Of a stretch of 64,000 nt of DNA, positions 1-26,408 are shown one piece after another; within the stretch, counting starts at the first letter, position 1; every line of letters begins with the position of its first letter. Both the position numbers and the translations under genes were made by a program. The stretch covers positions 580,354 through 644,353 of the forward strand of contig CAXBLY010000001.1 of assembly GCA_963976865.1 (NCBI GenBank). Reading direction: 5' to 3'. This stretch comes from an uncultured Gammaproteobacteria bacterium. GTDB taxonomy: Bacteria > Pseudomonadota > Gammaproteobacteria > UBA4575. The notes under the pieces are model-generated. The model did not search any database, was not told the DNA's origin, and saw only the letters and a list, made by a program, of their open reading frames with translations.

Positions 1-1944
1 ACACTTTTTGATGGCGCGATCCTCAATAGGCCAGGCAGTTTCAACACGGCGGAAGAAGTTTCTGTCCATCCAGTCAGCACTGGAGCAATATAGTTTTGAG
101 CGGCCACCGTTATAAAAATAAAAGACGCGAGAATGCTCCAGGAACCTGCCAACAATTGAACGAACTTCAATATTCTCTGAAATGCCTTTGACGCCTGGCC
201 TTAGACAGCAGGGGCCACGCACAATTAATTTTATCTCAACACCGGCGATAGACGCTCGGTAGAGTGCCTGTATTAACTGTGGTTCAACTAATGAGTTTAC
301 ACGAGCAATAATTTTTGCTTTGCGATGTTGTGTCGCACGTTTGGTTTCTTTCTCAATGTATTCAATGATTGTTTTATACAATGTGAAGGGTGCCTGTAAT
401 ACATTGTTCAGTCTCGGAATCTTTGTGAAGCTTGTGAGCTGTAAAAATATTTCATGCAAATCAGTTGTTATTCCAGGATCGCATGTAAACATTCCGTAGT
501 CGGTGTACAGTTTTGCAGTAGACTGATGGTAGTTGCCGGTACCTAAATGGGCATAACGGACCAGTTGATCATTCTCGCGTCTTATCACCAGTATCATTTT
601 TGCATGTGTCTTGATTCCTACAATGCCATAGACAACGTGTGCCCCCGCTTTTTGTAGCCGGTTCGCCAGTGCGATATTTGCAGCTTCATCAAATCTTGCC
701 ATGAGCTCAATAACAACAGTCACTTCCTTGCCAGAATTAGCAGCCATAACAAGTGCATCGACAATACGGGATTTTGCACCTGTTCTATATAAGGTTTGTT
801 TAATGGCTAAAACTTTGGGGTCTTTTGCTGCCTGATGAATAAAGTTAAGCACCGGCGCGAAGGACTGATAAGGGTGATGCATTAATACATCCTGGCTGGA
901 AATGACCTTGAATAAATTTGAATCCGGTGTGATCGGATTTGGTAGCAGGGGTTTGAAGCTACTATATTTTAAGTCGGGTCTGTCAATTAAATCGTAGGTG
1001 TTTAAAAGACGATTCAGATTAACCGGGCCATTTACCTTGTATAAGTCAATTTCATCAAGTTCGAATTGATGCAGCAGGTATTCAACAAGATGATCAGGAG
1101 TATTTTTATAGGTTTCTAAACGTGCAGCAGCACCATAACGGCGTGAAGCCAACTCACCTTCCAGCGCCAGGGGTAAATTGTCAATTTCATCATCGACATA
1201 CAAGTCGCTATTACGTGTGACGCGGAACTGGTAGCAACCATAAACCTGTAAGCCTTCAAACAGATCATGAACAAATTCGTGAATGACAGATGACAGGAAT
1301 ACAAAATTAATTGAATCATCACCCTGATCGCCAGGAAGCTGAATGAGTCTCGGCAAAGATCTTGGTGCCTGCACAATTGCCAGATGGCCACTTCTGCCAA
1401 ATGCATCTGAACCGCCTACTTCAACGATAAAGTTCAGACTTTTATTTAGGATACGTGGAAAGGGGTGGCCCGGATCAATACCAAGCGGACTTAGTACCGG
1501 TTCAACCTGGCTGGTAAAGTAATTCTGAATCCATTTGCGCTGGGATTGCGACCATTTCTCACGCGCAAGGAAATGCACATTTTCTTTAGTCAGTGCAGGC
1601 AATATGACTTCATTGAAAACACGATATTGTTCTTCAACCAAAATGGTTGCTGATTCATGGATTTCACGCAATACCTGTTTTGCAGGCTTCTGGTCGGCGG
1701 AGGTGTAGCCGGTAGAGAACTCAATATGCTGTTTAATGCCAAGTACGCGAATTTCAAAAAATTCATCTAAATTAGAGCATGAAATGCAAAGGAACTTTAA
1801 GCGCTCTAATAGCGGTGTGTTGATATCTTTTGCCTGTTCCAGCACACGCTCGTTAAATTTCAGCTGGCTAATTTCCCGATTGATAAATAACTCAGGCTGG
1901 CTGACGTCAATGTTGTGTGCATTCTCGTCTTTGGATGTAGGCAT
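1..1944 (-). CDS. ppk: polyphosphate kinase 1 (partial, C-terminus runs off window start)
   Basis: Reverse-strand translation from ATG at 1944 gives MPTSKDENAHNIDVSQPELFINREISQLKFNERVLEQAKDINTPLLERLKFLCISCSNLDEFFEIRV, matching the conserved PPK1 N-terminus. The frame stays open to position 1, so it is absent from the ORF track only because it is partial. Confidence 0.88.
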   Translation of the reverse strand, partial: MPTSKDENAHNIDVSQPELFINREISQLKFNERVLEQAKDINTPLLERLKFLCISCSNLDEFFEIRVLGIKQHIEFSTGYTSADQKPAKQVLREIHESATILVEEQYRVFNEVILPALTKENVHFLAREKWSQSQRKWIQNYFTSQVEPVLSPLGIDPGHPFPRILNKSLNFIVEVGGSDAFGRSGHLAIVQAPRSLPRLIQLPGDQGDDSINFVFLSSVIHEFVHDLFEGLQVYGCYQFRVTRNSDLYVDDEIDNLPLALEGELASRRYGAAARLETYKNTPDHLVEYLLHQFELDEIDLYKVNGPVNLNRLLNTYDLIDRPDLKYSSFKPLLPNPITPDSNLFKVISSQDVLMHHPYQSFAPVLNFIHQAAKDPKVLAIKQTLYRTGAKSRIVDALVMAANSGKEVTVVIELMARFDEAANIALANRLQKAGAHVVYGIVGIKTHAKMILVIRRENDQLVRYAHLGTGNYHQSTAKLYTDYGMFTCDPGITTDLHEIFLQLTSFTKIPRLNNVLQAPFTLYKTIIEYIEKETKRATQHRKAKIIARVNSLVEPQLIQALYRASIAGVEIKLIVRGPCCLRPGVKGISENIEVRSIVGRFLEHSRVFYFYNGGRSKLYCSSADWMDRNFFRRVETAWPIEDRAIKKC

Positions 1945-1953: not shown

Positions 1954-3108
1954 TTACTGAGTGATTAGTGTTTGTTGGTAAAACTCTAACATATTATCAG
2001 CTAGTGCTTTCGAGTCCCATTTTCCTGCATATTCGACTGCCGCCAGTTTTGTTTGTTCGTACACCTGTTTATTTTTGAGTAAAAAGACCACTTTATCGCA
2101 AAAATCGTCTATCTCACCATTGGTAATTATTGCCCCATTGCAATCAATCAGGATATCTCTGGTTCCCATGGCAGCTACTGAAACAACAGGAGTTCCGGAG
2201 GCCATTGCTTCGAGTAACACCAGGCCTTGAGTTTCTGTTACTGAACTGAATACAAAAATATCAGCACTATGGTAACAGTCTACCAGAGTGGTATCTCTGT
2301 CCAGATAACCGACAAATGCAATATTGTTATCAAGATTCAATTTTTTGGCCTGTTGTATGTATGCATTCCGGGCGGGGCCTTCGCCGGCAATGACGAGTAA
2401 AATCTCAGGAATGTGCTGTTTGACTCTGTCGACCATATCAAGCAATAAGCCAATATTTTTTTCAAAGGCAACGCGACTAACGTTTAATAGAATCTTTCTG
2501 TCGTCCGGGAGCTTGAATGTGGTTTTGAAAGCCTCACCATCACCGCCTTCGAATTTCTTGCTGTTGATGCCGGTAGGTATGATTTTAATATTATTTTTGA
2601 CACCATATGATTTTAATAATTTGACGATGATTGATGAAGGCGCAATAACACCTTTGGCCTGATTACACTGACGTGATGAAAATCGGCGCGCAAAGAATTT
2701 CAATACCTGTTTTGGAACGATAGGGATGTAGTGGTAAAGGTATTCTTCAAATAGTGTGTGGTAAGTAATAACGCATGGTATGCCTAATGCTTTGGCGATT
2801 CTGACTCCCGAGTAATGCGCAATAAAGGGTGTTTGAATATGTACAATATCGAAGTCACACGATATCAATTGAGGAATAAGCCTGGTAATGGCCTTTGATT
2901 TCATCATCCGGTCTTCTGGATCATAGGGGATTGCACGTGATGGTATGCGTATAATGGAGTCATCACTTTTGTCGCCACCAGTGTATTCAGGAGCAATCAG
3001 AGTGACTTGATTTCCGGATTTTTCAAATTCAGCCTTGAACGTCTGAATGGAAGTGGATACACCATTTATTCTTGGAAAGTAAACATCGGAAATCATCAAA
3101 ATATTCAT
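1954..3108 (-). CDS. glycosyltransferase family 4 (GT-B, group 1), 384 aa
   Basis: N-terminal ILMISDVYFPRINGVSTS and C-terminal EX7E motif (ETQGLVLLEAMASGTPVV) typical of retaining GT4 enzymes. Same strand as the upstream GT4 and metallophosphoesterase, directly after them. Confidence 0.8.
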   Translation of the reverse strand: MNILMISDVYFPRINGVSTSIQTFKAEFEKSGNQVTLIAPEYTGGDKSDDSIIRIPSRAIPYDPEDRMMKSKAITRLIPQLISCDFDIVHIQTPFIAHYSGVRIAKALGIPCVITYHTLFEEYLYHYIPIVPKQVLKFFARRFSSRQCNQAKGVIAPSSIIVKLLKSYGVKNNIKIIPTGINSKKFEGGDGEAFKTTFKLPDDRKILLNVSRVAFEKNIGLLLDMVDRVKQHIPEILLVIAGEGPARNAYIQQAKKLNLDNNIAFVGYLDRDTTLVDCYHSADIFVFSSVTETQGLVLLEAMASGTPVVSVAAMGTRDILIDCNGAIITNGEIDDFCDKVVFLLKNKQVYEQTKLAAVEYAGKWDSKALADNMLEFYQQTLITQ

Positions 3109-3160
3109 GTCATATTCTCAATGGCCTGCATAGATTTTATATAATGCGCCTGGCGCAATG

Positions 3161-4189
3161 TTATGCAGATTTTGCTGAGGTGAGGTTGTTAATGAATTGC
3201 AGTGTCGCCTGTTCCCAGGTGTATTCAAGCGCCTGATTAATGCAATCCTGTGGGTCCAGTTTGAGTGCTTCAAGTGCGGCTGTTTTTAAATTGTCATTCA
3301 ATATACCTGTTGTACCATCGCGAACAACATCACGAGGGCCTGTTACCGGGAACGCTGCAACAGGTAAGCCACATGCCATTGCTTCTAACATCACTACACC
3401 AAAAGTGTCTGTCAGGCTGGGAAAGACAAATACATCGCCGCTTGCTAGATAGTTTGCAAGTTGTTCACCGAACTTGTAGCCCTCAAATTTCACATTCGGG
3501 TATTTCTGACGCAGTTCATTGGTGGCAGGACCATCACCGATGACGACTTTGGTGCCAGGCAGGTTTAAAGACAGAAATGCTTCAATGTTTTTTTCAACCG
3601 CAACACGACCGACATAAACAGAGATGGGGCGGGGGTAGGATAAAAGATCTTTACTGTTTGGTTTGAATACACCGGTGTCGACACCGCGAGTCCATAAGGC
3701 AAGATTTTTAAATCCTCGTTTTTCCAGAATTTTTTGTTGATGCGGTGTGCCCACCATAGTGCGTGTTGCTTTGCTATGAAAGCGACGAAAAAATGCGTAT
3801 GTGAGACTCAGAGGGACGGGAATTCTCTCTCGAATGTATTCAGGAAACTGAGTGTGATATGAGGTGGTAAAAGCAAGATTGTTTTTAATGCAGTACTTCC
3901 TTGCTGCCTGTCCCAGAGGGCCTTCAGTTGAGATATGTATATGTGTTGGCTTGAATTCATCAAGCTGTTTTTTTATATATTTGCCTGCACCTAAAGCCAG
4001 ACGAATTTCCGGATAAGTAGGACAGGGAATGGTTTTACATTCGCCTGGGTGTATTACATGAACTTGATGACCTAGTTTGATGGCGGTGTCGCGAGTTTTA
4101 CCTAGCGTGGTGACCACACCGTTGACTTGTGGTTTCCACGCATCAGTGACAATCACAAGGCGAATGGAGTTACTGGTGGCTAGCGTCAT
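3161..4189 (-). CDS. glycosyltransferase family 4, 342 aa
   Basis: RLVIVTDAWKPQVNGVVTT N-terminus and GT4 EX7E-type motif (DTFGVVMLEAMACGLPV). Lies between the metallophosphoesterase and the second GT4. Confidence 0.8.
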   Translation of the reverse strand: MTLATSNSIRLVIVTDAWKPQVNGVVTTLGKTRDTAIKLGHQVHVIHPGECKTIPCPTYPEIRLALGAGKYIKKQLDEFKPTHIHISTEGPLGQAARKYCIKNNLAFTTSYHTQFPEYIRERIPVPLSLTYAFFRRFHSKATRTMVGTPHQQKILEKRGFKNLALWTRGVDTGVFKPNSKDLLSYPRPISVYVGRVAVEKNIEAFLSLNLPGTKVVIGDGPATNELRQKYPNVKFEGYKFGEQLANYLASGDVFVFPSLTDTFGVVMLEAMACGLPVAAFPVTGPRDVVRDGTTGILNDNLKTAALEALKLDPQDCINQALEYTWEQATLQFINNLTSAKSA

Positions 4190-4248
4190 AAATATAATGT
4201 TTGAATATAGGGGTCAGAGCGGATTATTGCACTGGTGCCTTCGCAAGA

Positions 4249-5055
4249 TTAAGCAACTTTTTGGCTGGCATATTCCGGATTATTTTCGCTAAGCAAGGAT
4301 TTCTTGTAATCCTCATTCCAGTAAATCAGTTCCAGACTACCATCGTCATGCTCAATCATGCCTGAGCAGCTTTCCACCCAGTCTCCATCGTTACAATAGA
4401 GTACTGAATTGATGTGACGAATTTCAGCATGGTGTATGTGTCCACAGACAACGCCATCAACTTTTCTTTCTTTGGCCAAATGCGCAAGAGCAGTTTCGAA
4501 GCTGCCAATATAGTTAACAGCATTCTTAACCTTGAGTTTTAAGTATTTGGCCAGTGACCAGTAGTTGCGTTTAAAAAGTCTGCGAAAAATATTGACGTAC
4601 TGATTTAGCTGTAAAAGTATGTCGTAAGCCCAGCTGCCGAGCTTGGCGATCATTTGGCTATGTTTAACTATAGTGTCAAATTCGTCACCATGTAATATCA
4701 ACAGTTTTTTACCATTGGCAGTGATGTGTTCATAATCCAGGTGTATTTCTACATTACCAAATGTATAACCAGCATATTCACGCATGACCTCATCATGGTT
4801 GCCCGGGATATATATCACTTTCGTTCCATGTTTGGCTTTACCGAGTATGGAACGTATGACATTGGTGTGCTGCTGTGGCCAGTATGAAGATTTTTGCAGA
4901 CTCCAGAAATCGACAATGTCACCAACCAGAAACAGGTATTCGGTTTCTACGCTATGAAGAAAATCAAGCAGGTTTTCCGCCTGGCATCCGCGAAAACCCA
5001 GATGAACATCTGAAATCCATACACTCCTAACATGAAGTAATGCTGGCGTACTCAA
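4249..5055 (-). CDS. metallophosphoesterase of the LpxH / PlcP family (UDP-2,3-diacylglucosamine diphosphatase-like; candidate phospholipase C PlcP)
   Basis: Calcineurin-like motifs ISDVHLG, VGDIVDFW, GNHDE, GDxxD and GHIH, with LpxH-like overall architecture (268 aa). The genomic context (GT4 genes, PAP2, Pho regulon) differs from the canonical lpxH neighbourhood. Confidence 0.65.
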   Translation of the reverse strand: MSTPALLHVRSVWISDVHLGFRGCQAENLLDFLHSVETEYLFLVGDIVDFWSLQKSSYWPQQHTNVIRSILGKAKHGTKVIYIPGNHDEVMREYAGYTFGNVEIHLDYEHITANGKKLLILHGDEFDTIVKHSQMIAKLGSWAYDILLQLNQYVNIFRRLFKRNYWSLAKYLKLKVKNAVNYIGSFETALAHLAKERKVDGVVCGHIHHAEIRHINSVLYCNDGDWVESCSGMIEHDDGSLELIYWNEDYKKSLLSENNPEYASQKVA

Positions 5056-5276
5056 AATGAAATCCGTTTTCTGACTGTATTACTCATTGGGGAGCAAAAT
5101 ATAACGGTTTGGTTACATAGGTATTAAATTTTTGTGAACTATTTATTAAAAGCAGTAAATAAGCCGATGAAAACACTAATGATGTAATAATAAATTCATT
5201 TTCATCTATCAACATTGGCCCAGCAGTGATCGATCCTTGTGATCAAAAATAAATTACGTTAGCGGAAGCCAGTGTC

Positions 5277-5822
5277 ATGTTTCAAACAAGAGTGAATAGC
5301 CTTTTTGAACGAGCAGATCTTATAGAGATGCGTTTATGTGTTCTTCTTAATAATAGCAGTCGATATACATATATAAGATTATTTTTTCGTGTGGTAAGTC
5401 GTCTGGGTGACGGCATGTTCTGGCATGCCCTGGCTGTGTTTTTACCCTACTTGCACGGCAAGCAGGGTGTCGCCGAAGCAGTACACATACTGATAACCGG
5501 ATTACTGGTACTGGGTACTTACAAGTTTTTAAAAAGCAGGCTGGTTCGCGAAAGGCCATTTATAAGTAATAACATTATAAAACAGGCCGCACCAGCGCTT
5601 GATCAATACAGTTTTCCTTCAGGACATACCATGCATGCGTTTTCATTCGCAATATTATTCAGTTATTTCCTGCCGGAACTAACATCGGTTGTATGGGGGT
5701 TTGCAGGACTGGTGGCAATGTCACGAGTTATTTTGGGGCTACATTATCCTACTGATGTGGTAGCAGGCGCATTACTTGGATCATGTCTGTCAGTGCTCAG
5801 CTTACTGATCATGACAGGATAA
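5277..5822 (+). CDS. PAP2 family phosphatase (phosphatidic acid / lipid phosphate phosphatase type)
   Basis: All three PAP2 signature motifs are present: KSRLVRERP (KX6RP), PSGH, and SRVILGLHYPTDV (SRX5HX3D). It is a hydrophobic membrane protein, transcribed divergently from the PlcP-like gene. Confidence 0.85.
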   Translation: MFQTRVNSLFERADLIEMRLCVLLNNSSRYTYIRLFFRVVSRLGDGMFWHALAVFLPYLHGKQGVAEAVHILITGLLVLGTYKFLKSRLVRERPFISNNIIKQAAPALDQYSFPSGHTMHAFSFAILFSYFLPELTSVVWGFAGLVAMSRVILGLHYPTDVVAGALLGSCLSVLSLLIMTG

Positions 5823-5921: not shown

Positions 5922-5964
5922 CTGACATTTTTGTCACAAAGTTGTCATTTAAGTGAAATATGAT
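5922..5964 (+). promoter_or_regulatory. Pho box (PhoB binding site) plus -10 element for the porin gene
   Basis: CTGACAT tttt, then TTGTCAC aaag TTGTCAT ttaa: 7-bp direct repeats with 4-bp A/T spacers on an 11-bp period, matching the CTGTCAT-A(A/T)A(T/A)-CTGTCAC consensus. A TATGAT -10 hexamer follows at 5959-5964, about 105 nt upstream of the porin ATG. Confidence 0.7.
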
Positions 5965-6070: not shown

Positions 6071-7360
6071 ATGAACTTAAAGCATATTCGTGCTGCATCC
6101 CTCGCTGCACTTGTAGCATCCGGTGCAATAGTTTCCACGCCGGCGTTTGCTGCCAATGACGCTATGATCGAGCTACTAAAGGTACTTCGGGATAATGGCA
6201 CTATCACTGATGAAGCCTATAACCTTCTTAAGAATTCTGCCGCAGCAGACGAAGAGCGGACAGATGCAAAAATAGAAGAGACTGCAGAACAGAAATTAGC
6301 GTCTGTTAACAAGGTTTCTGACAAGCTTAAATGGGCAGAGAAGATCAAATTTAAAGGTGACTTGCGTCTGCGACGTCAATATCAGGAGGCTGATCCAGAA
6401 AATGGAGAAAGTCAAAGTCGTGAACGTTACCGCTACCGTCTACGCCTGGGCGCTGAAGGCGAAGTGACTGATAGTGTGAAAGTGGGATTAGGATTTGCTA
6501 GTGGTGGCAGTGATGCACGCTCTACAAATGAAACGCTGGATGACGGATTCTCTACTAAAGATATCCGTTTGGATTACGCATTTGCAGAATGGAAACCAAC
6601 TGACTGGGTAAGTGTTGCTGGCGGTAAATTCAAACGTAAAGAGTATTTGTGGGCACCAACCGACTTATTGTGGGATGATGATATCAACCCGGAAGGTGTT
6701 TCTGTGCATTTACAAACTGATAATTCGTTTGGTACAGCATACGGAAATGCAGGTCACTGGATTGTCGAAGAATATAGTACGGTAAGTGATGATCCAACAC
6801 TGACTTATGCGCAGATTGGCCACAAGTTCAAGTCGGGCAATTTCTTTGGAAATGTTGCAGGTACTTACTATGCATTTGATGGTTTGGAAAATGAAACCGT
6901 GATTGTTGGTAGTGGTGGTAACAACACTTTAGTCGGTGGTAACTACATGTATGACTACGACTCTATTGGTTTGTCAGCAGAGCTTGGTGTGATGGATGTA
7001 TTAATTCCAGGCAAGAATTTCTCGATTTTCGCTGATTACATCAAGAATGACGATAGTGATGAAGATACCGGTCGAGCATTTGGCTTCAAGTTTGGGGATA
7101 AGAAAGTTGGTGACCAGCATACCTGGCAGCTAAAGTTTGTTAATGCTGATCTGGAAGCAGATGCATTTGTAGATTTCCTTCCTGATTCCGATCGACTTGG
7201 TGGAAATACAGGTGTGAAATCCAATGAAGTTGTATTCAAATATGCAGTTGCTAAGAATATAATTCTGGCGCTGGATTATTATGACTCAGAACAGGATGCA
7301 CCTGGTTTAGATGATGACGAAGAGAAAGTTTTACAAACTGATATCTCTTTCAAGTTCTAG
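6071..7360 (+). CDS. outer-membrane porin, phosphate-selective porin O/P (OprP-like) family
   Basis: Signal peptide MNLKHIRAASLAALVASGAIVSTPAFA and a beta-barrel protein ending in F. KIKFKGDLRLRRQYQ resembles the OprP N-terminal barrel start. A strong Pho box lies upstream and the phoBR-pst operon is adjacent. Confidence 0.65.
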   Translation: MNLKHIRAASLAALVASGAIVSTPAFAANDAMIELLKVLRDNGTITDEAYNLLKNSAAADEERTDAKIEETAEQKLASVNKVSDKLKWAEKIKFKGDLRLRRQYQEADPENGESQSRERYRYRLRLGAEGEVTDSVKVGLGFASGGSDARSTNETLDDGFSTKDIRLDYAFAEWKPTDWVSVAGGKFKRKEYLWAPTDLLWDDDINPEGVSVHLQTDNSFGTAYGNAGHWIVEEYSTVSDDPTLTYAQIGHKFKSGNFFGNVAGTYYAFDGLENETVIVGSGGNNTLVGGNYMYDYDSIGLSAELGVMDVLIPGKNFSIFADYIKNDDSDEDTGRAFGFKFGDKKVGDQHTWQLKFVNADLEADAFVDFLPDSDRLGGNTGVKSNEVVFKYAVAKNIILALDYYDSEQDAPGLDDDEEKVLQTDISFKF

Positions 7361-7510: not shown

Positions 7511-8251
7511 ATGAATCTTCAATACGATTTACAACCACCTAAATTTTCTTCCCGGCAAATGAAAAAACACCGAATAATGATCGTAGAAGATGAGAAGCCT
7601 ATTCGCGATATGGTCTATTTTGCGCTAGACAGTGATGGTTATGAGCTTCTTGAAGCGGTAGATGGAAGGGAAGCAACTGAAAAACTGGCACAGGATCTTC
7701 CAAGTTTGATCCTCATGGACTGGATGCTGCCGGATATCTCTGGCCTTGAACTGGTGAGACGTATCAAGCGTGATGAAATCACCAGCCATATTCCGATCAT
7801 TATGCTCACCGCCAAAACAGAGGAAAGAGACAAAATAGATGGGCTGGATTCAGGGGCAGACGATTACATCACAAAACCGTTTTCGGTGAGAGAACTGTCA
7901 GCCCGAATACGTGCGGTAATGCGCCGAATTGATGGCGATGAAAGCGATAATAAACTCACCTATGGCAAGTTAGTGCTTGACCTTGATGCCCATCATGTAA
8001 TCATTGACGATACACAAATTGAGGTGGGGCCTACCGAGTTCCGCTTATTAGAGTTTTTTATGACACATCCGGATAAAGTATACAGTCGTGCACAGTTGCT
8101 GGATTTTGTATGGGGTCGTAGCAAGTTTGTAGAAGAGCGAACGGTTGATGTGCATATCCTGCGTTTAAGAAAGTTATTAAAACCCTACAACTGCCATCAA
8201 ATGGTTCAAACAGTGAGAGGTTACGGTTACCGCTTCATTGTAGATAAATAA
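7511..8251 (+). CDS. phoB: phosphate regulon response regulator PhoB
   Basis: MIVEDEKPIRDMVYFALDSDGYE...LILMDWMLPDISG...GADDYITKPFSVRELSARIRAVMRR aligns with E. coli PhoB throughout, with an OmpR-type winged-helix C-terminus. The true start may be the internal ATG at 7559 (MKKHRIMIVED). TAATG overlap with phoR. Confidence 0.93.
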   Translation: MNLQYDLQPPKFSSRQMKKHRIMIVEDEKPIRDMVYFALDSDGYELLEAVDGREATEKLAQDLPSLILMDWMLPDISGLELVRRIKRDEITSHIPIIMLTAKTEERDKIDGLDSGADDYITKPFSVRELSARIRAVMRRIDGDESDNKLTYGKLVLDLDAHHVIIDDTQIEVGPTEFRLLEFFMTHPDKVYSRAQLLDFVWGRSKFVEERTVDVHILRLRKLLKPYNCHQMVQTVRGYGYRFIVDK

Positions 8252-9588
8252 TGCAGATAGCAACGTTCTGGGTTGAATTAAGGTTAGCCTTACTTGTTTT
8301 TGTTGCCAGTCTGGCCCTTGGTTTCCTTAGCGGACACTGGGCATTGTCTATATCTATTGGGTTGTTTGCGTTTATTATCTGGCATTTACGCCAGATAATG
8401 CATTTGCGTCGCTGGCTGGCGTCTGGTGCTCCCATGGATGCGGTGCCGAATCTGTATGGCACTGCCTATCACATTATTACCCAGGTCTGTGATATTAAAA
8501 AACGCCATAATGCACAGCGAATCAGTCTTGAACATTCATTGGCAAAATTTGATGCGGCGACGAAAGCAATGCCTGACGCCATGCTCATTGTTGACCAGAT
8601 GCAAACAATTGAATGGGCAAATCCGGCGGCAAAAACCCTGCTAAAAATTGATGCTAAGCGTGATATTGGTCAACGCATTGATAATATTGTGCGGGATCCG
8701 GAAATTACCAGTTATTTAACCAAGCAAGTATTTGACAACCCACTGGAGTTTTCATCAACAAATAGTACAGGTAAAGACCTAATGCTGAGAGTTGTCTCTT
8801 ATGATGATGGCAAAAAGCTACTCATAGTGCATGACCATGGTGATCTGTTGCGCTTGCAGAATGTACGCAAAGACTTTGTTTCCAACGCATCTCATGAAAT
8901 GCGCACACCACTGACAGTCATTATCGGTTATCTTGAGACACTCACCATGCGTGAAGAAATGACACCACTTACCCGGCGGGGCGTGGAAGGCGCGCTGGAG
9001 CAAGCCCAAAGATTAAAGCGTCTGATCGAGGATTTGCTTTCGCTGTCCAGGCTGGAGAATTTACCTTTAACTAAAAGCCAGTCAGAAAGTATCAATATCA
9101 CCATGCTGATACGCGAAGGCATCGACCTGCTGAAGTCCTCAGATGTGTACAAGAATCAGCAATTTGAGCTTGATTGTGATGGCGGGATTCAAATCAGTGG
9201 TGATTATCTTGAATTACAAAGTGCCATTCAGAATATCATCGATAATGCAGTCAAGTATTCGCCGGCAAATTCCTGCATCAATATCAGTTGGCGCAAACAT
9301 AACCAGGGTGGTTCACTATTAAGCGTAACGAATCTCGGTGAAAGCATTGACGAATCACATATTCCACGTTTGACAGAACGCTTTTACCGCATCGATAAAG
9401 GTCGCTCACGAGATATGGGCGGTACAGGGCTGGGTCTGTCAATTGTGAAACACATAATGGAGCGACATGGCGGTGAATTGAAAATTCACAGTCAAAAAGA
9501 GGCTGGAACGACTGTAGAGCTGAGTTTCCCGGAAGCGCGTAATATTTATGGGGAACAACAAGTTAACTCAAAAAGTCATGCCGTGTAA
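8251..9588 (+). CDS. phoR: phosphate regulon sensor histidine kinase PhoR
   Basis: N-terminal TM region, PAS-like segment, H-box NASHEMRTPL and HATPase_c (GTGLGLSIVKHIMERHGGEL). Translationally coupled to phoB. Confidence 0.9.
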   Translation: MQIATFWVELRLALLVFVASLALGFLSGHWALSISIGLFAFIIWHLRQIMHLRRWLASGAPMDAVPNLYGTAYHIITQVCDIKKRHNAQRISLEHSLAKFDAATKAMPDAMLIVDQMQTIEWANPAAKTLLKIDAKRDIGQRIDNIVRDPEITSYLTKQVFDNPLEFSSTNSTGKDLMLRVVSYDDGKKLLIVHDHGDLLRLQNVRKDFVSNASHEMRTPLTVIIGYLETLTMREEMTPLTRRGVEGALEQAQRLKRLIEDLLSLSRLENLPLTKSQSESINITMLIREGIDLLKSSDVYKNQQFELDCDGGIQISGDYLELQSAIQNIIDNAVKYSPANSCINISWRKHNQGGSLLSVTNLGESIDESHIPRLTERFYRIDKGRSRDMGGTGLGLSIVKHIMERHGGELKIHSQKEAGTTVELSFPEARNIYGEQQVNSKSHAV

Positions 9589-9670: not shown

Positions 9671-10645
9671 ATGAACTTTAAGCATATGACCGCAGCACTC
9701 ACCGCGTTGGTGACAGTGTCTACAAATGTTGCGTTTGCCGAGGCAAAAGTTGATGAAGGTTTGAAAGACTACACTGTGGCAAGTGGTGTATCAGGTAACT
9801 TGTCTAGTGTGGGTTCTGACACCTTAGCCAATCTGATGACACTTTGGGCCGAGGATTACAAGCGCTTCTACCCGAATGTGAACATCCAGATCCAGGCGGC
9901 AGGGTCTTCTACAGCGCCTCCAGGACTGACTGAAGGTACTTCAAACCTGGGCCCTATGAGCCGAAAAATGAAAGATAAGGAAATTGCATCATTCGAAGAA
10001 AAGTACGGCTACAAGCCAACAGCTATTCCTGTGGCAATTGATGCACTGGCAGTATTTGCGCACAAGGATAACCCGATTAAGGGTCTTTCGATTGAGCAGG
10101 TTGATGCCATTTTCTCAAGCACACGCAAGTGTGGAGCTAAAGATACCGTAACCAATTGGGGCGACCTTGGCTTGACAGGTGAGTGGGCACGTAAGGATAT
10201 CCAGTTATTTGGACGTAATTCAGTATCGGGTACTTACGGCTACTTTAAAAAGGTAGGTCTGTGTAAGGGTGATTTCAAATCTACAGTGAACGAGCAACCA
10301 GGTTCAGCCTCAGTGGTACAGTCGGTTACCCAGTCACTGAATGGCATCGGCTACTCAGGAATAGGTTACAAAACCACAGGCGTTCGCGCACTTCCGATTG
10401 CAAAAGGTGGATCTGCCAACTACATAGAAGCGTCACCTGAAGCCGCTATTTCTGGCAAGTACCCGTTAGCTCGCTTTTTGTACGTTTACGTAAACAAGCA
10501 TCCAAATAAGGCGCTATCGCCTTTGGAAGGTGAATTCATTAAGCTGGTACTTTCAAAAGAAGGCCAAAAGGTTGTTGTGAAAGACGGATATATCCCACTA
10601 CCTGCAAAAGTGGCTGAAAAAACTCTGAAATCACTGGGTCTGTAG
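9671..10645 (+). CDS. pstS: phosphate ABC transporter substrate-binding protein PstS
   Basis: Signal peptide, PstS-family periplasmic binding protein ([30 protein letters not shown]). RBS AGGAGA 6 nt upstream. Confidence 0.9.
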
Positions 10646-10683
10646 TATTGCCTGGCGAATAACAGAGAGAGAAGTAGTACCCG

Positions 10684-10719
10684 AGAGCCCTATTAATTAA
10701 TATAGGGCTTTCTTTTTAT
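10684..10719 (+). terminator. rho-independent terminator / attenuator between pstS and pstC
   Basis: GAGAGCCCTAT-taattaat-ATAGGGCTTTC stem-loop followed by TTTTTAT. It probably sets the high pstS:pstCAB expression ratio. Confidence 0.7.
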
Positions 10720-10781
10720 CCAGCTTTAACATTGTTCTTATATAATACCGCCCTACAAATTGACACAGAATAGCTCGGGAA

Positions 10782-13034
10782 ATGGAAGCCAGTAATACTT
10801 CAGATCAGATTGCCAAAGGTCAGCGCAGATGGAAAATTCGTAAATTCGTCGATGTGCTGGCGCGCAGAGTGGTTGAAATAGGTGGCATAAGTGTCATTGC
10901 AGCCATCGCTCTAATCTTTCTATTTCTATTAAGCGTGGTGTATCCGCTTTTTGGGCAACCATCGGTAGATGAGATTGCTCAGTATCAGATATCTGATACT
11001 CAAGACGAAACGCTGTACTTGGCCATAGAAGAACAGGCTGAAATCGCATTGCGAGTCGGCAGTTCGGGCAACATACAATTCTTTAATGTAGAGAATGGCG
11101 AGATAATACTCAGGCGAAAACTGCCCATAGAACCTGGTAATAAAATCACTTCTTTTCGGGTAGCGAATGAAGCAACAGGATTGCTGGTAGCAGGAATGCA
11201 GTCAGGTGAATTGTTGTTCTTCAAACATGATTATGAACTGGAATTTACGGATACCAGCCGCATTATACATCCCGAAATTCTCTATCCTTACGGTGAACAG
11301 TTGTTCAGGGTTGCAAAAGGGCCCGTACTGGATTTTGCAGTTGGAGATAACGAGGATTCTACTGCAGTACTCGTTCGTACGTTGGATGGGAAAATAATAT
11401 TTCAGTCATTCACAAAAGAATCATCTTTTATTGATGAAACAACGACACTTGAATTAGGCGACAGCGATGAAATTCTCACCGTTGATCCTGTGCTCGGTCT
11501 GCTGGTTGATCCAGAGCAGGAGTGGGCCTACATACTGACTCAGGGTGGCGACTTGTCAGCCTACGATATTCGGCAGAATGATTTTCTCTTAAGAGAAAAA
11601 GTAAAAGTCACTGAAGGAGAAGTAAGACCCACATATCTCAAATTCCTAACCGGTGGAATCTCGTTATTAATTGGGGATAGCAGAGGCAAATTATCACAGT
11701 GGTTTCAGGTGCGTAGTGACGGCGAACTTGAATTCAGACTACAAAAGATTCGTGAGACACATATCGATAATTCACCAATAACAAGTCTGGCGACAGAGCA
11801 ACTAAGAAAAGGCGTTATAGCGGCAAGCCAGGCAGGCACGATTAAATTGCTATACACAACCAGTGAACGTGATTTGTTGACGATACCCGCGAGTGACAGT
11901 GCGATTCAGACATTAGCTGTTGCACCCCGCGCAGACATGTTTATTGCGGAAGATAGAAGCAGAACTATCAAGGCCTGGAATATAGACAATCATCACCCGG
12001 AAACATCACTTGCAGCGTTATGGGGGAAGATCTGGTATGAGGATTATGTGAAGCCGGACTACATCTGGCAGTCATCATCAGCCAGTAGCGATTTCGAACC
12101 CAAATACAGTTTAGTACCATTAACCTTTGGTACATTAAAAGCAGCATTTTATGCAATGATGTTTGCCATGCCTCTTGCCATATGCGGTGCAATTTTTACT
12201 GCTTACTTCATGGCACCACCGATGCGCGCAATAGTGAAACCTTCAATTGAAATCATGGAAGCACTGCCAACCGTGATTCTGGGATTCCTGGCGGGTTTAT
12301 GGCTGGCACCTTTTGTTGAATTACATCTGCCCGGCGTATTTAGTATTTTTATATTAATGCCCATAGGAATAATTCTGCTGTCGCTAGTCTGGTGGAAGCT
12401 GCCAGGGAGTACAAAAAGATTCATCCCTGAAGGATGGCAGGCAGCCGCGCTAATAATTCCATTGATTATCATCGCATTGGTATGTGTCAACGTGTCACCC
12501 TATGTGGAACGAGTGTTTTTTGATGGGAATGTACGCATATGGCTGAGTGAAGAACTTGGTATTGGTTTTGATCAGCGCAATGCATTAATTATTGGAATCG
12601 CGATGGGCTTTGCCGTGATACCAACAATATTTTCAATTGCGGAAGATGCCATTTTCAGTGTGCCAAAACATCTTACATCGGGTTCTCTGGCATTAGGTGC
12701 AACACCCTGGCAAACCTTGACACGGATCGTATTGCTATCCGCCAGCCCGGGTATTTTCTCGGCGGTTATGATCGGATTTGGTCGTGCGGTGGGTGAAACA
12801 ATGATAGTGCTGATGGCAACAGGTAACACGCCAGTGATGGACTTTAGTATCTTTCAGGGCATGCGTACATTGTCAGCGAACATTGCCGTTGAATTGCCTG
12901 AATCGGAAGTGGACAGTACGCACTATCGAATATTATTTTTAGCGGCATTTGTTTTGTTTATTTTTACTTTCTTTTTCAATACGGTGGCAGAAATAGTGCG
13001 TCAGCGGTTAAGAAAGAAATACAGTAGCTTATAA
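10782..13034 (+). CDS. pstC: phosphate ABC transporter permease PstC, long form (750 aa) with an N-terminal extension of about 430 aa
   Basis: The C-terminal third carries the BPD_transp_1 permease core (EAA-like loop region). The N-terminus has one TM helix followed by a large extracytoplasmic domain, as in Pseudomonas PstC (677 aa). Confidence 0.88.
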   Translation: MEASNTSDQIAKGQRRWKIRKFVDVLARRVVEIGGISVIAAIALIFLFLLSVVYPLFGQPSVDEIAQYQISDTQDETLYLAIEEQAEIALRVGSSGNIQFFNVENGEIILRRKLPIEPGNKITSFRVANEATGLLVAGMQSGELLFFKHDYELEFTDTSRIIHPEILYPYGEQLFRVAKGPVLDFAVGDNEDSTAVLVRTLDGKIIFQSFTKESSFIDETTTLELGDSDEILTVDPVLGLLVDPEQEWAYILTQGGDLSAYDIRQNDFLLREKVKVTEGEVRPTYLKFLTGGISLLIGDSRGKLSQWFQVRSDGELEFRLQKIRETHIDNSPITSLATEQLRKGVIAASQAGTIKLLYTTSERDLLTIPASDSAIQTLAVAPRADMFIAEDRSRTIKAWNIDNHHPETSLAALWGKIWYEDYVKPDYIWQSSSASSDFEPKYSLVPLTFGTLKAAFYAMMFAMPLAICGAIFTAYFMAPPMRAIVKPSIEIMEALPTVILGFLAGLWLAPFVELHLPGVFSIFILMPIGIILLSLVWWKLPGSTKRFIPEGWQAAALIIPLIIIALVCVNVSPYVERVFFDGNVRIWLSEELGIGFDQRNALIIGIAMGFAVIPTIFSIAEDAIFSVPKHLTSGSLALGATPWQTLTRIVLLSASPGIFSAVMIGFGRAVGETMIVLMATGNTPVMDFSIFQGMRTLSANIAVELPESEVDSTHYRILFLAAFVLFIFTFFFNTVAEIVRQRLRKKYSSL

Positions 13035-13039
13035 CTATT

Positions 13040-14704
13040 ATGAATACAGAAAAGCTGGGTTTTTTTAAAAGCGGCACACCTTGGGTATGGTTAAACGCCG
13101 GTGCTGTATCGATCAGTATGATAATGGTCATCGGCTTGTTGATATTGATAGCAGCGAAAGGCCTTGGTCATTTTTGGCCGAAAACAATCTGGGAAATCGA
13201 TTACCAGGAAGGTGATAAGCAGATCGTGCTGTTAGGTGAGCGGGCAAAAACGGAATCAGTGCCTGCAAAACAGCTTGTGGCATCGGGTCTGCATGTTGAG
13301 TTTGAAGAAGAGTTCGTAGAAAGAACAATGCTTAAAATCGGCAACCGTGAAATGTATGGAGTGGATTTCAAGCTTATTGTTAAACCATCTGAAAACGAGG
13401 TTCGCAAGCCCGTCGATGCCATTGTGTTCGAGCGCACTCAGTGGGGTAATTTTTACGGGTATCTGAAGTCTATTAGTGAAAATGGCAGCACAATTGATAT
13501 TGACCCGGATAATTTATGGAATGAATTACAGGAACGCTTAAAGCGAGTTGAAGACTTGCGTGATGAGATTCATGAAATAGAAAAGTTTGATATTGGAAAG
13601 ATCAATTACAAGATTGAAGACTTGCGTCTGAGAGAGCGTCGGATAGAACTGAGTGGCATCAGCGATCCTGCCATTATTGCCGATATCAGCGCTGAACGTA
13701 ATATTCTGAATGATAAGTATGAAGTATTAAAAACGGAACTGGCAAAGTTATATACCCAGATAGCACGTGATCAGGCATTGATGACAATACAAAATGGCCA
13801 GGAGAAGCTGATCAAGCTGGCAGATATTGTTAAAGCAAGTAAGCCCAATGCGATGAGTATATGGACTAAAATCGCACATTACTTTGTCAACCTGAAAGAT
13901 TTTATAGCCGATGATCCACGAGAAGCGAATACTGAAGGAGGCATATTTCCAGCAATATTTGGTACAGTCATGATGGTGTTGCTAATGTCTGTCATCGTGA
14001 CACCTTTTGGAGTAATCGCTGCAATTTATTTGCGTGAATATGCTAAACAGGGATTTATTACAAGACTGGTAAGGATCTCTGTGAATAACCTGGCGGGTGT
14101 TCCATCGATTGTATATGGGGTGTTTGGTCTGGGGTTCTTTGTATATTTTCTGGGGGGGAATATAGATCAGTTATTTTACCCTGAAGCTTTACCCTCGCCG
14201 ACGTTTGGATCAGGCGGGATATTATGGGCATCACTCACCTTGGCATTGCTGACAGTGCCCGTAGTTATCGTGGCTACCGAAGAAGGCCTGTCAAGAATAC
14301 CAAGTTCTGTGAGAGAAGGTTCGCTGGCTTTGGGGGCAACCAAAGCGGAAACGCTGTGGCGCACCGTGATACCTATGGCAAGTCCTGCAATGATGACAGG
14401 TCTTATTCTGGCAGTCGCGCGTGCAGCAGGAGAAGTTGCACCATTAATGCTGGTTGGTGCAGTCAAACTGGCGCCGTCTTTACCGCTTGATTTGAATGCT
14501 CCGTTTTTGCATCTGGAAAGAAAGTTCATGCATTTGGGTTTTCACATTTATGATGTTGGTTTCCAGAGTCCCAACGTTGAAGCGGCGCGTCCACTGGTGT
14601 TTGCAACGGCGTTAATTCTTGTCCTAGTAATAATATTACTAAACCTGTCTGCCATATATATCCGTAATCATTTGCGGGAAAAATATCGCACCATGGAACA
14701 TTAA
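13040..14704 (+). CDS. pstA: phosphate ABC transporter permease PstA, long form (554 aa)
   Basis: C-terminal ABC permease domain ([38 protein letters not shown]) with an N-terminal TM plus a coiled-coil-rich extension, comparable to Pseudomonas PstA (556 aa). Confidence 0.88.
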
Positions 14705-14735
14705 TATAAATTGTATAATATCAGGCAATAAACAT

Positions 14736-15557
14736 ATGACTATTGATACCCCAGTATCCGATCAGGTCTTCCACGGGAAGGAATCAAGAAAGATCGAAGA
14801 CGAAGAGGTTTGTATACAATGCAAGGACTTTTCACTTTTCTATGGTGAGAAGCAGGCACTGTTTGATGTAAATATGAGCATCCCAACAAACCGTGTCACA
14901 GCATTTATCGGTCCTAGTGGATGTGGTAAATCAACACTGCTTCGTTGCATGAATCGAATGAATGACCTCGTGGATGGTGTCACCCTTAAAGGTGAAATGT
15001 TATTAAGAGGCGAAGACGTTTATGACAGAAGTGTCAACGTTACTGATTTGCGCAGAAGAGTGGGAATGGTATTCCAGAAACCCAACCCGTTCCCGAAAAC
15101 TATTTTTGAAAATGTAGCATATGGCCTGCGCCTGCAAAACGTCTCAAATAAAAGAGAAATTGAAGACCGTGTTGAATGGTCGTTAAAACAGGCAGCATTA
15201 TGGGATGAAGTCGGTAATCGACTACAGGATAATGCGTTTGCGTTATCAGGCGGACAACAACAGCGTCTGGTGATAGCCAGAGCGATAGCTATTCAGCCCG
15301 AAGTGCTATTGCTGGATGAACCTGCATCAGCACTGGATCCGATATCGACGTTTAAAATTGAAGAGCTGATTTATGAACTCAAGTCACAATATACGGTGGT
15401 TATTGTGACACATAATATGCAACAGGCGGCGCGGGTGTCAGATTATACTGCTTTCTTGTATCTTGGAGAGGTAATTGAATTTGATGCTACGGATCAGTTG
15501 TTTACAAATCCAGTGGAAAAAAAGACAGAGGACTATATTACAGGACGTTATGGATAG
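14736..15557 (+). CDS. pstB: phosphate import ATP-binding protein PstB
   Basis: Walker [13 protein letters not shown] signature LSGGQQQRL, Walker [12 protein letters not shown], with the PstB-specific N-terminus. Confidence 0.95.
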
Positions 15558-15580
15558 GTGGTGGAAATAAATTAATAAAA

Positions 15581-15611
15581 TGTATATACAAAGCATGCAA
15601 ATGTATATACA
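15581..15611. promoter_or_regulatory. two copies of the perfect 10-bp palindrome TGTATATACA (21 bp centre to centre) in the pstB-phoU spacer
   Basis: AATGTATATACAA agcatgc AATGTATATACAA, also containing a GCATGC palindrome. Positioned about 35-65 nt upstream of the phoU ATG (RBS GAGGT). Confidence 0.4.
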
Positions 15612-15645
15612 ATGTATTTAAATATCATTTTGAGGTCATACTGCC

Positions 15646-16365
15646 ATGTCAATACAAAATTTTGGACAACATATACTGCACCAATTCGATGAGGACCTCG
15701 AGTCAACTCGAAATAAAGTCCTCAATATGGGTGGGCTTGTTGAAAAACAAGTTGAGAATAGCCTGCTAGCCCTGGTCAATTCAGATAGCAGCCTGGCTGA
15801 AAAAGTCGCAACAAGCGATTACCAGGTAAACTCCATGGAAGTAGCAATTGATGAAGAATGTAATCACATCATTGCCTTACGTCAGCCAGCCGCAGGTGAT
15901 TTACGCCTGGTCGTCGCTATTATTAAAACAATTACAGATCTTGAAAGAATAGGTGACGAAGCGGAAAAAATTGGCCGTTATGCCGTGGAACTGGCAACAG
16001 AAGAACGCAATGAAATGTATTTTTCAGAGCTTAAGCTTTTGGGCGACCAGGTTAAGACGATATTACGTGAATCCCTGGATGCTTTTGCACGCATGGATGT
16101 TGCCAGTGCCTTTAAAACGGCCGCAACTGACAAAGCTATCAACCAGGAATACGACGTGATCATGCGCAAGCTGATCAAATCCATGTCTGAAGATCGTTCC
16201 TCCGTCGAGCGAGGTTTAAAAGTCATGTGGTGCGCTCGTGCATTAGAGCGAATTGGTGATCATGCCAAGAATATCTGTGAATACGTGATCTTTACTGTTG
16301 AAGGCAAGGATGTTCGTCACACCAGTTTTCAACAGGCACTGGATGAATTTCAGGGTAAATCCTGA
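15646..16365 (+). CDS. phoU: phosphate signalling complex protein PhoU
   Basis: Two PhoU repeats (LRLVVAIIKTITDLERIGDEAEKI and KVMWCARALERIGDHAKNICE), 239 aa, last gene of the pst operon. Confidence 0.9.
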   Translation: MSIQNFGQHILHQFDEDLESTRNKVLNMGGLVEKQVENSLLALVNSDSSLAEKVATSDYQVNSMEVAIDEECNHIIALRQPAAGDLRLVVAIIKTITDLERIGDEAEKIGRYAVELATEERNEMYFSELKLLGDQVKTILRESLDAFARMDVASAFKTAATDKAINQEYDVIMRKLIKSMSEDRSSVERGLKVMWCARALERIGDHAKNICEYVIFTVEGKDVRHTSFQQALDEFQGKS

Positions 16366-18019: not shown

Positions 18020-18231
18020 GTAAAATTCCTGAAAGATTATTCATTTCGAGCATATATACACGAATTGTAAATTCAAAAATGTGATTAGTAGAGCGTGCTC
18101 GGCAATTTTTAGATATAGCTAAATGTTCTGCCGATATATGGTTAAAATTCAGAGATTTACGGATGCGAACTTTCTCACACTGTTTGCTTCTAAGTAATAG
18201 TTCACAAAAATATAATAACTGAGGATAAGTA

Positions 18232-19616: not shown

Positions 19617-19700
19617 TGCTGAATCACATGAGTAGTTTATAAGTGTAAAATCGACTACACTTTAAACATTGGAATATATACAAAATAACAGGAGAAAAGC

Positions 19701-20072: not shown

Positions 20073-20094
20073 TACCCTGTTGGTTTAGTTTTAT

Positions 20095-22278: not shown

Positions 22279-22312
22279 CAGTTAACTATTCAATTAATCA
22301 AGGAGAAACACT

Positions 22313-22693: not shown

Positions 22694-22715
22694 AGGTTAA
22701 GCACTATTTTTTACC

Positions 22716-24785: not shown

Positions 24786-24790
24786 CAACA

Positions 24791-25078: not shown

Positions 25079-25090
25079 AAGTATCTATAT

Positions 25091-26403: not shown

Positions 26404-26408
26404 ATTGT

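Follow-up and report, generated by a model that had tools for sequence, protein, structure and literature searches.

We analyzed a stretch of 64,000 nucleotides (the window) from an uncultured gammaproteobacterium of the UBA4575 lineage (GenBank assembly GCA_963976865.1, contig CAXBLY010000001.1), in which a metallophosphoesterase gene is followed by two genes for glycosyltransferases of family 4 (GT4b and GT4a) and faces a divergent gene for a PAP2-type phosphatase. With a probability of about 85%, the locus is a PhoB-controlled membrane-lipid remodelling module of the PlcP/Agt type. The core of such a module, plcP and agt paired behind a Pho box, belongs to a well-described system that has already been shown in a gammaproteobacterium with two glycosyltransferases, Pseudomonas aeruginosa; what is new is the coupling of a Pho-boxed PAP2 gene to GT4 genes. 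The original prediction, made from the DNA letters alone, had proposed a PlcP/Agt-type remodelling system in a gammaproteobacterium. Its four open reading frames (ORFs) are all present at the coordinates it gave, with the expected neighbours, according to the ORF list and Pfam, and its interpretation is supported by the family tests of both the phosphoesterase and the GT4 enzymes, which turned out favourable.

The phosphoesterase and the two glycosyltransferases

Reference PlcP sequences were taken from chromosomal DNA contained in PLSDB plasmid records, where the orthologue of P. aeruginosa PA3219 was recognised by its neighbours PA3218 and cyaB, and that of Sinorhizobium meliloti SMc00171 by the adjacent sinR and sinI. 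The P. aeruginosa 'plasmid' pHPA0698-2 (L097) is chromosomal DNA with PA3219-PA3218-cyaB (cyaB being PA3217), and the 3.7-Mb 'pSymB' of S. meliloti Ak57 (L098) is chromosomal DNA with sinI-sinR-SMc00171. Phospholipase (PlcP) activity has been demonstrated experimentally for PA3219 (PMC8528852) and, according to references in PMC4796936, for SMc00171.

The comparison of the phosphoesterase with PlcP and LpxH, proposed as a check of the original prediction, sides with the validated PlcPs. By BLASTP, the protein is 54% identical to the PA3219 orthologue (E 7e-95, 268 bits) and 45% identical to the SMc00171 orthologue (E 1e-90, 257 bits), whereas the match to Escherichia coli LpxH amounts to 23% over 125 residues (29.6 bits). 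Its scores with the LpxH equivalog models NF003743 (45.2 bits, cut-off 134) and TIGR01854 (40.9 bits, cut-off 190) are far too low for membership, and Haemophilus influenzae LpxH gives 36 bits in a sequence search of solved structures. The motifs DVHLG (aa 16–20), GDIVDFW (aa 45–51) and GNHDE (aa 85–89) are found as first described, and the elements DxH, GD, GNHD, HGD and GHxH are invariant in 21 members of the PlcP family. In both aligned LpxH structures, GNRD occupies the place of GNHD(E).

The AlphaFold model of the phosphoesterase has a predicted local distance difference test (pLDDT) value of 79, and its 12 nearest PDB entries are all LpxH, at 17–20% identity. A low-confidence helical insertion, approximately residues 123–197, lies at the position of the lipid-binding lid of LpxH. 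Because LpxH is the nearest fold and yet shares such low identity, 'LpxH-like' is right for the fold only. Of the earlier 'LpxH-family' label, the remote fold relationship therefore stands; closer membership does not, with scores below the LpxH equivalog cut-offs and a motif other than GNRD. The protein possesses the metallophosphoesterase motifs, lies within the threshold used by Sebastian et al. (PMC4796936) for membership of the PlcP family (similarity to a validated PlcP at E < 1e-40), and is encoded directly upstream of agt and behind a predicted, conserved Pho-box array. By these sequence characters, the product of 4249–5055 is a PlcP-type intracellular phospholipase C and not LpxH. The name that public pipelines give to every member of the family is 'UDP-2,3-diacylglucosamine diphosphatase', a propagated mis-annotation that is systematically wrong and extends to the validated enzymes of P. 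aeruginosa and S. meliloti.

GT4b, encoded next to plcP, is 47% identical over 326 aa to the orthologue of P. aeruginosa Agt1 (PA3218; E 4e-112). It contains GRVAVEKN (aa 194–201) and FPSLTDTFG (aa 256–264), with Asp replacing the first Glu. The Agt/GTcp clade is marked by GRVAXEKN and FPSXTDTFG, in which an Asp that is essential in GTcp takes the place of the usual Glu (Wei et al. 2021, PMC8231724), and the validated P. aeruginosa Agt1 has FPSLTDTYG with the same signature Asp. The EX7E motif at first ascribed to both enzymes is thus present in GT4a (ETQGLVLLE, aa 292–300), while GT4b has DX7E (DTFGVVMLE). Candidates for the catalytic His (H104) and for the Thr-Arg pair (T162/R163) and Trp (W320) that bind DAG in GTcp may lie in SYHTQ (110–114), WTRG (166–169) and YTWEQ (323–327) of GT4b. 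The PlcP neighbourhood counts given here are based on 80 genome loci retrieved by a PlcP query. A GT4b homologue (46–75% identical) lies directly downstream of PlcP in about half of them, and these pairs cover alpha-, gamma- and zetaproteobacteria. Thalassospira is among them, which Sebastian et al. (PMC4796936) list as PlcP+Agt 'type 2', and the pairing matches the 'type 2' layout of that paper. GT4b is, as far as clade motifs and identity can tell, an Agt-clade glycosyltransferase acting on diacylglycerol (DAG), and its gene is called agt.

The second enzyme, GT4a, belongs to a different clade, sharing just 28–30% identity with Agt1 and GT4b (28% with Agt1). Its best NCBIfam model is the Mgs alpha-monoglucosyl-DAG synthase (NF049988), to which it aligns over the full length (1–379 against 1–386 of 398); as the score of 140 bits is below the cut-off of 400, GT4a is related to Mgs and not a member. 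The next models are IagA/BgsA and GlcNAc-phosphatidylglycerol (PG) synthase, so that the top three are all DAG or PG glycosyltransferases, and JGI names its homologues 1,2-diacylglycerol 3-alpha-glucosyltransferase. Searches of solved structures by sequence with GT4a and GT4b returned generic GT4 matches only (BshA, PimA, BGluT), by which the sugar donor is not indicated. Neither enzyme is WaaG-like, a point on which the original prediction had made itself dependent: against the WaaG structure 2IV7, GT4a scores 28.5 bits and GT4b 22.5 bits, both well under other GT4s, and there are no waa genes nearby.

GT4a homologues recur beside PlcP, and several carry a C-terminal fusion to a prokaryotic DAG-kinase domain (DAGK_prokar, DgkA). 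The gene orders include PAP2 > PlcP > GT4a::DgkA with PhoD adjoining (L081–84), GT1_3 > PlcP > GT4a > DgkA beside a phytase, a phosphodiesterase and a TonB receptor (L085), PlcP > GT4a > DgkA > Ugd in Pseudohongiella (L007), a divergent PlcP–GT4a pair on a Thiodictyon plasmid, and PAP2 > GT4a convergent with plcP > agt in Thiohalophilus (L015). A plasmid search with GT4a as query gave no Pseudomonas or Burkholderia record among the matches listed. In terms of sequence and neighbourhood, GT4a is a second, recurrent partner of PlcP from a clade other than that of GT4b. In some loci it is the sole glycosyltransferase beside PlcP and therefore presumably glycosylates DAG itself there; DAG is its most likely acceptor, and the linkage to Ugd hints at UDP-glucuronic acid as donor. 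A plcP-agt-dagK operon is known in Burkholderia (bioRxiv 10.1101/2023.05.30.542800), and PlcP, DagK and UDP-glucose dehydrogenase are all PHO-regulated in P. putida, so the association of GT4a, DgkA, Ugd and PlcP is not new.

Glycosyltransferases of a further type were seen near PlcP. In L002–L009 (Nitrosomonas and Burkholderiales metagenome-assembled genomes, MAGs), PlcP is 71–75% identical and a PF13528 (Glyco_trans_1_3) enzyme, not an Agt-type GT4, is encoded 1–2 kb downstream. An enzyme of this type is also encoded after PAP2 in Pseudohongiella L007 and ahead of PlcP in L085.

Pho boxes and extent of the operon

The control region is the 221-bp divergent stretch between plcP and PAP2 (5056–5276). 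The E. coli Pho-box consensus (CTGTCATNNNNCTGTCAT) matches the window, with up to three mismatches, 8 times against 7.1 expected, and the pstS and phoB promoters of the window itself fit it poorly. Because it is uninformative here, a position weight matrix (PWM) trained on the lineage was used in its place. When the pstS, phoB and porin promoters of the window were set beside their counterparts in the syntenic relative L001, the local half-sites emerged as TGTCAY, TGTAAY and TTTAAT at 11-bp spacing. The PWM was trained on 11 dimers from these promoters, and the plcP–PAP2 region was excluded.

The top two non-training non-coding matches of the window both fall in the control region, one in each direction. 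The site facing PAP2, ATGTAATAATAAATTCAT, is identical in the relative L086, and its L001 counterpart, TTGTAATAAATATTTCAT, scores 18.5 bits. The core box facing plcP, 5129–5112 (-), is ATTTAATACCTATGTAAC; it ranks 6th of 15,663 non-coding positions, after four non-coding training sites and 5182(+), and the flanking half-sites at 5151, 5140 and 5118 keep a perfect 11-bp register with it. Its counterpart in L001 reaches 16.7 bits, and both L001 scores are level with those of the training sites. When the control region of the window is aligned with those of L086, L001 and L094, the Pho-box blocks are kept in all four; in L094, the half-sites at this position are canonical (TGTCAC/GTCAT). The search for a Pho box in this region, suggested with the original prediction, is thus positive with the lineage-trained PWM, at sites kept in three relatives.

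Across the 80 PlcP loci, Pho-box-like sites with ≤3 mismatches were found upstream of plcP in 16%, compared with 1.3% of random windows of the same loci, and with ≤4 mismatches in 51%, compared with 9% of control windows (Mann-Whitney p = 5e-20). PHO-dependent expression of PlcP has been shown by experiment in Pseudomonas (PMC8528852) and Burkholderia (bioRxiv 10.1101/2023.05.30.542800). The conserved, 11-bp-phased arrays in both directions place plcP and PAP2 in the predicted Pho regulon. The candidate -10 hexamer TATATT (Table 1) is tentative, because the sigma-70 and terminator scan of the window found no more sites than in shuffled sequence.

Two further sequences resemble parts of these promoters. 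At 18196–18216, upstream of an OmpA/glycine-zipper gene (18232–18909), AATAGTTCACAAAAATATAATA has an unbroken run of 16 bases in common with the array upstream of plcP, AATAGTTCACAAAAAT. With the Pho PWM, the 18-mer at 18199 reaches 6.6 bits, and it may be a further Pho-regulated promoter or a chance match. In L015, 8–9 tandem CTGCCAA heptamers stand beside the Pho boxes of the plcP-agt and PAP2-GT4a operons (6830–6895 and 10880–10925).

The leftward operon appears to extend beyond GT4a. The ppk start codon (1944) and the GT4a stop (1954) are separated by 9 bp, the order GT4a-ppk is the same in L001 and L086, and in L086 the two genes overlap. On account of this short gap and the overlap, ppk is probably co-transcribed with GT4a and probably closes the plcP operon. 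No terminator-like site was found at the junction in the scan just mentioned, which performed at chance level overall. The original prediction had ppk as a flank of the block; it does adjoin GT4a, and it is more than a flank if it shares the operon.

PAP2 and its coupling to lipid glycosyltransferases

The divergent PAP2 gene had been described with three signatures, which we located as KX6RP (aa 86–94), PSGH (114–117) and SRX5HX3D (149–160). They sit on the six-helix membrane core of an all-helical AlphaFold2 model (pLDDT 85), so that the protein has the characters of the PAP2 superfamily in its predicted fold. The model is nearest to Aquifex LpxE (6EBU; template modelling (TM) score 0.70/0.77, 26% identity, sequence match 47 bits), followed by Bacillus subtilis PgpB (5JKI; TM 0.67). 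Its scores with the SepP, PgpB and YbjG equivalogs are 60, 41 and 39 bits (cut-offs 250, 261 and 229). The best NCBIfam model is undecaprenyl-diphosphatase, and JGI names the homologues likewise.

Neighbourhoods were compared in 10 lineages with a PAP2 homologue 34–76% identical. An Agt-like or GT4a-like GT4 is adjacent to PAP2 or in an operon with it in nine of them; L103 alone lacks a neighbouring GT4. In L094/95, an agt gene (product 69% identical) is divergent from PAP2 > porin > phoBR > pstS, and PlcP is missing from the arrangement, whereas L096 has both a divergent Agt–PAP2 pair and a divergent PlcP–GT4a pair. The gene for an Agt-like GT4 with FPSxTDTFG overlaps the PAP2 gene in three Oceanospirillaceae/Thalassolituus lineages. 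Canonical Pho-box arrays are found upstream of the PAP2-GT4 units of L015, L081, L091, L092 and L101. The array is CTGTCACAAGACTTTCAC in L081 and has four half-sites in the PAP2-GT4a unit of L015; the arrangement ACTTCAC-N4-CTGTCAC-N4-CTGCAAG-N4-CTGTCAC is kept in three Oceanospirillaceae PAP2 loci. As an observation in its own right, a cassette of an Agt-like GT4 (395–402 aa) and an overlapping PAP2 gene, with a four-half-site Pho array and without PlcP nearby, occurs in Thalassolituus/Oceanospirillaceae (L091–L093, L101–L102) and is widespread in Tara samples.

The most economical reading, which the neighbourhoods support, is that PAP2 would supply a glycosyltransferase with DAG by taking the phosphate off phosphatidic acid (PA) or a related lipid phosphate; such a role would directly explain the repeated coupling of PAP2 to GT4 genes. 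It echoes the phosphatidate-phosphatase route proposed for cyanobacteria by Sebastian et al. (PMC4796936). A literature search for PlcP together with PAP2 gave no paper linking the two within the library searched and returned only papers on plant papain-like proteases. We tentatively go one step further, at somewhat less than even odds, and propose that PAP2 and an Agt- or GT4a-like GT4 form a PhoB-controlled cassette that would turn PA or another lipid phosphate into DAG and then glycolipid, independently of PlcP or in parallel with it, with the inorganic phosphate (Pi) released in the periplasm, within reach of PstS.

Several points weigh against reading the locus as a PhoB-controlled remodelling module with PAP2 and GT4a as working parts. 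The training sites of the PWM were chosen by eye from six promoters only, the E. coli consensus does not exceed chance, and the control windows of the family-wide Pho-box count are mostly coding DNA. The 140 bits of GT4a against the Mgs equivalog cut-off of 400 leave its substrate without assignment, and neither dgkA nor ugd is present in the 64-kb window. PAP2 is near PlcP in just 5 of the 80 PlcP loci, remains under every NCBIfam equivalog cut-off, and has a lipid A 1-phosphatase as its closest structure. Moreover, the active sites of PAP2 enzymes are usually periplasmic, but PA made de novo and the glycosyltransferases are found at the cytoplasmic face. A PAP2 active site facing the periplasm would therefore require lipid flipping if the enzyme feeds DAG to cytoplasmic glycosyltransferases.

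Other readings of the whole cluster have to be set against the PlcP/Agt-type module. One takes the phosphoesterase for a housekeeping LpxH in lipid A synthesis and both GT4s for glycosyltransferases of the lipopolysaccharide (LPS) core, which would account for the public annotation and the nearest solved fold. This is hardly credible, however, given the 23% identity (29.6 bits) to E. coli LpxH, scores far under both equivalog cut-offs, GNHD in place of the GNRD of LpxH, WaaG scores of just 22–28 bits with the GT4s, and a neighbourhood with neither LPS-core genes nor ppiB-lpxH synteny; the annotation itself is borne, identically and wrongly, by the validated P. aeruginosa and S. meliloti PlcPs. 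The cluster might instead make glycolipids for another purpose, such as envelope stress or cationic-peptide resistance, its position beside phoBR-pst and its Pho-box-like sites being coincidental. The chance-level results of the E. coli consensus and of the promoter scan would fit such a case, as would the finding that P. aeruginosa glycolipids also protect against polymyxin (PMC8528852). Coincidence is nonetheless improbable in view of phased box arrays kept in four genomes, L001 scores equal to those of the pstS and phoB boxes, the enrichment of Pho boxes across the PlcP family, the PhoD, phytase and TonB neighbours in related loci, and the PHO-dependent PlcP expression measured in Pseudomonas and Burkholderia.

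A reading confined to PAP2, and perhaps GT4a too, would leave the plcP-agt core unchanged. Here PAP2 is not a DAG supplier and instead a Pho-regulated, periplasm-facing envelope phosphatase in the sense of LpxE, PgpB or UppP, which would take phosphate off lipid A 1-phosphate, undecaprenyl diphosphate or phosphatidylglycerophosphate (PGP), yielding Pi for PstS and altering the surface charge. It agrees with the best sequence and fold match (Aquifex LpxE, then B. subtilis PgpB), with the undecaprenyl-diphosphatase model and JGI naming, and with the position of the gene directly upstream of the Pho-boxed porin and pst genes, where a periplasmic active site, assumed by homology, would suit Pi scavenging beside porin and PstS; undecaprenol-specific relatives exist, furthermore, for both DgkA and PAP2. 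On the other hand, every equivalog score is far under its cut-off, and the tight, repeated coupling to Agt-clade GT4s, with overlapping genes in Oceanospirillaceae and divergent Agt–PAP2 pairs without PlcP, is left unexplained. We consider an envelope phosphatase possible, although on the unlikely side, and retain DAG supply as the working role of PAP2.

Proposed mechanism, genomic setting and related systems

In the PlcP/Agt-type mechanism that we propose, PhoR would activate PhoB when phosphate is scarce, and PhoB would bind the Pho-box arrays of the 221-bp region and thereby turn on the leftward operon plcP-agt-GT4a-ppk and the rightward gene PAP2. PlcP, a metallophosphoesterase of the Mn type whose lipid-binding lid resembles that of LpxH, would remove the phospho-head group to leave DAG, as its 45–54% identity to validated enzymes suggests. 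Agt (GT4b) would then move glucose and/or glucuronic acid from a UDP-sugar to DAG, a role consistent with its 47% identity and clade motifs. GT4a, most likely acting on DAG as well, may make a second glycolipid or the same glycolipid from another sugar donor; with two glycosyltransferases, a diglycosyl lipid or two different glycolipids may result, as the original prediction had suggested. The recovered phosphate may be banked as polyphosphate by PPK. PAP2, with its active site towards the periplasm by homology to LpxE and PgpB, most likely dephosphorylates PA or another lipid phosphate, and would thus be a second supplier of DAG and set Pi free beside the Pho-regulated porin and PstS.

The features of the locus are collected in Table 1. 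The TTG start of plcP was chosen alike by the gene callers and is kept in L001 and L086, and the complete layout of the window recurs in these two relatives in the gene-neighbourhood comparison. The right flank of a Pho-box porin followed by phoBR-pstSCAB-phoU, as originally described, is confirmed by Pfam and NCBIfam matches. The closest genomes are unclassified gammaproteobacterial MAGs, and contigs encoding identical proteins are present in Tara Oceans and JGI metagenomes.

Table 1. Genes and predicted regulatory sites of the locus in window coordinates.
Feature	Position	Strand	Description
ppk (PPK1)	1..1944	-	Cut by window edge; four PPK1 Pfam domains
GT4a	1954..3108	-	384 aa; Pfam GT4 N- and C-terminal domains
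GT4b (agt)	3161..4189	-	342 aa; Pfam GT4 N- and C-terminal domains
plcP metallophosphoesterase	4249..5055	-	268 aa; TTG start; Pfam Metallophos
Candidate -10 hexamer TATATT	5098..5103	-	Consensus scan; 8 bp downstream of core Pho box
Predicted Pho-box array facing plcP	5101..5151	-	Half-sites (TTTTAAT) AGTTCAC, ATTTAAT, ATGTAAC, CCGTTAT; 11-bp register
Predicted Pho box facing PAP2	5182..5199	+	ATGTAATAATAAATTCAT; 12.3 bits; best non-training PWM match in window
PAP2	5277..5822	+	181 aa; Pfam PAP2; divergent from plcP
Predicted porin Pho box	5931..5959	+	TTGTCACAAAGTTGTCATTTAAGTGAAAT; 3 mismatches to E. coli consensus; conserved in L001
Porin_5 porin, putative phosphate-starvation porin	6071..7360	+	Pfam PF16930; Pho box upstream
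phoB-phoR	7511..9588	+	Both above NCBIfam PhoB / PhoR equivalog cut-offs
pstS-pstC-pstA-pstB-phoU	9671..16365	+	Pfam and NCBIfam; pstC and pstA long-form

The listed phoB ORF (7511–8251, 246 aa) has about 16 surplus N-terminal residues; because the PhoB model aligns from residue 20 and the L086 product has 230 aa, the true start is probably a Met near 7559. An environmental variant of the locus (L089, 3013–4154) has its Pho-regulated porin gene broken into ORFs of 237 and 143 aa, through either a frameshift or an assembly error. Directly after phoU, the adjacent ORFs 16651–17442(-) and 17450–18019(-) encode proteins of 263 and 189 aa with no Pfam match at E <= 1e-5. The stretch 19005–35453 of the window is housekeeping in content, with gmk, spoT/relA, recG, an SBF transporter, an MFS transporter and a Mrp/Mnh-type antiporter cluster. 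An Rfam scan of the whole 64 kb yielded no family at its gathering score.

The swap of phospholipids for glycolipids is a major route by which marine bacteria lower their phosphorus demand, and it alters antibiotic tolerance in pathogens. The locus extends the carriers of PlcP–Agt to an abundant, uncultured marine gammaproteobacterial lineage and offers two candidate additional parts of the pathway, a Pho-boxed PAP2 coupled to lipid GT4s and a Mgs-like GT4 often found with PlcP, DgkA and Ugd. If DAG does come from PAP2, the two-route logic of plants and algae, in which phospholipase C and phosphatidate phosphatase operate side by side, would hold for heterotrophic bacteria as well. Should the cassette proposal hold, the PlcP and PAP2 routes would coexist here, both controlled from a single bidirectional Pho-box region. 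GT4a would then be a candidate synthase for the diglycosyl-DAG found in marine heterotrophs or for 'UGL', a glycolipid of P. aeruginosa, and phosphate from lipids would be channelled into polyphosphate storage through ppk.

A comparison with known systems starts with LpxH, which shares with the PlcP of the window the metallophosphoesterase core and the position of an inserted helical lid, and is its nearest solved fold. It differs by an identity of 17–23%, by GNRD in place of GNHD, and by its gene neighbourhood and, presumably, its substrate. The plastid and cyanobacterial phosphatidate phosphatases of PAP2 type (Nakamura et al. 2007, as cited in PMC4796936) are proposed to feed DAG to a glycolipid synthase in phosphate stress; they resemble the PAP2 of the window in this proposed role, and the latter stands alongside PlcP rather than replacing it.

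Closer counterparts are the 'type 2' clusters of SAR11 HTCC7211, Agrobacterium and Thalassospira (PMC4796936, PMC8231724), in which PlcP is likewise followed directly by an Agt/GTcp GT4 with GRVAXEKN and FPSXTDTFG. They too have a predicted Pho box and belong to a marine, phosphate-poor setting. In contrast to the window, they have one multifunctional glycosyltransferase, and PAP2, ppk and a second GT4 are not described there. The plcP-agt-dagK operon of Burkholderia cenocepacia (bioRxiv 10.1101/2023.05.30.542800) also joins PlcP with a lipid glycosyltransferase and a further lipid-phosphate enzyme, and is Pi-induced; the order PlcP–glycosyltransferase–DgkA is found with GT4a homologues as well, in L007, L081 and L085. 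The window has no dgkA, and with PAP2 its extra enzyme is a phosphatase, acting in the reverse direction to a DAG kinase.

The nearest described system is that of P. aeruginosa, where PlcP-Agt1 (PA3219-PA3218) and Agt2 (PA0842) constitute a pathway whose two glycosyltransferases make monoglucosyl-DAG (MGDG) and glucuronic acid-DAG (GADG) (Jones et al. 2021, PMC8528852). Both systems are gammaproteobacterial and have two glycosyltransferases, with plcP and agt adjacent in one operon behind a Pho box, and their PlcP and Agt1 are 54% and 47% identical. The second glycosyltransferase of the window, in contrast, is encoded inside the same operon and belongs to a clade different from that of Agt1 (Mgs-like, with EX7E). 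Distinctive of the locus are this Mgs-like GT4 within the operon, a ppk gene at its end, the divergent, Pho-boxed PAP2, and the direct juxtaposition with porin-phoBR-pstSCAB-phoU.

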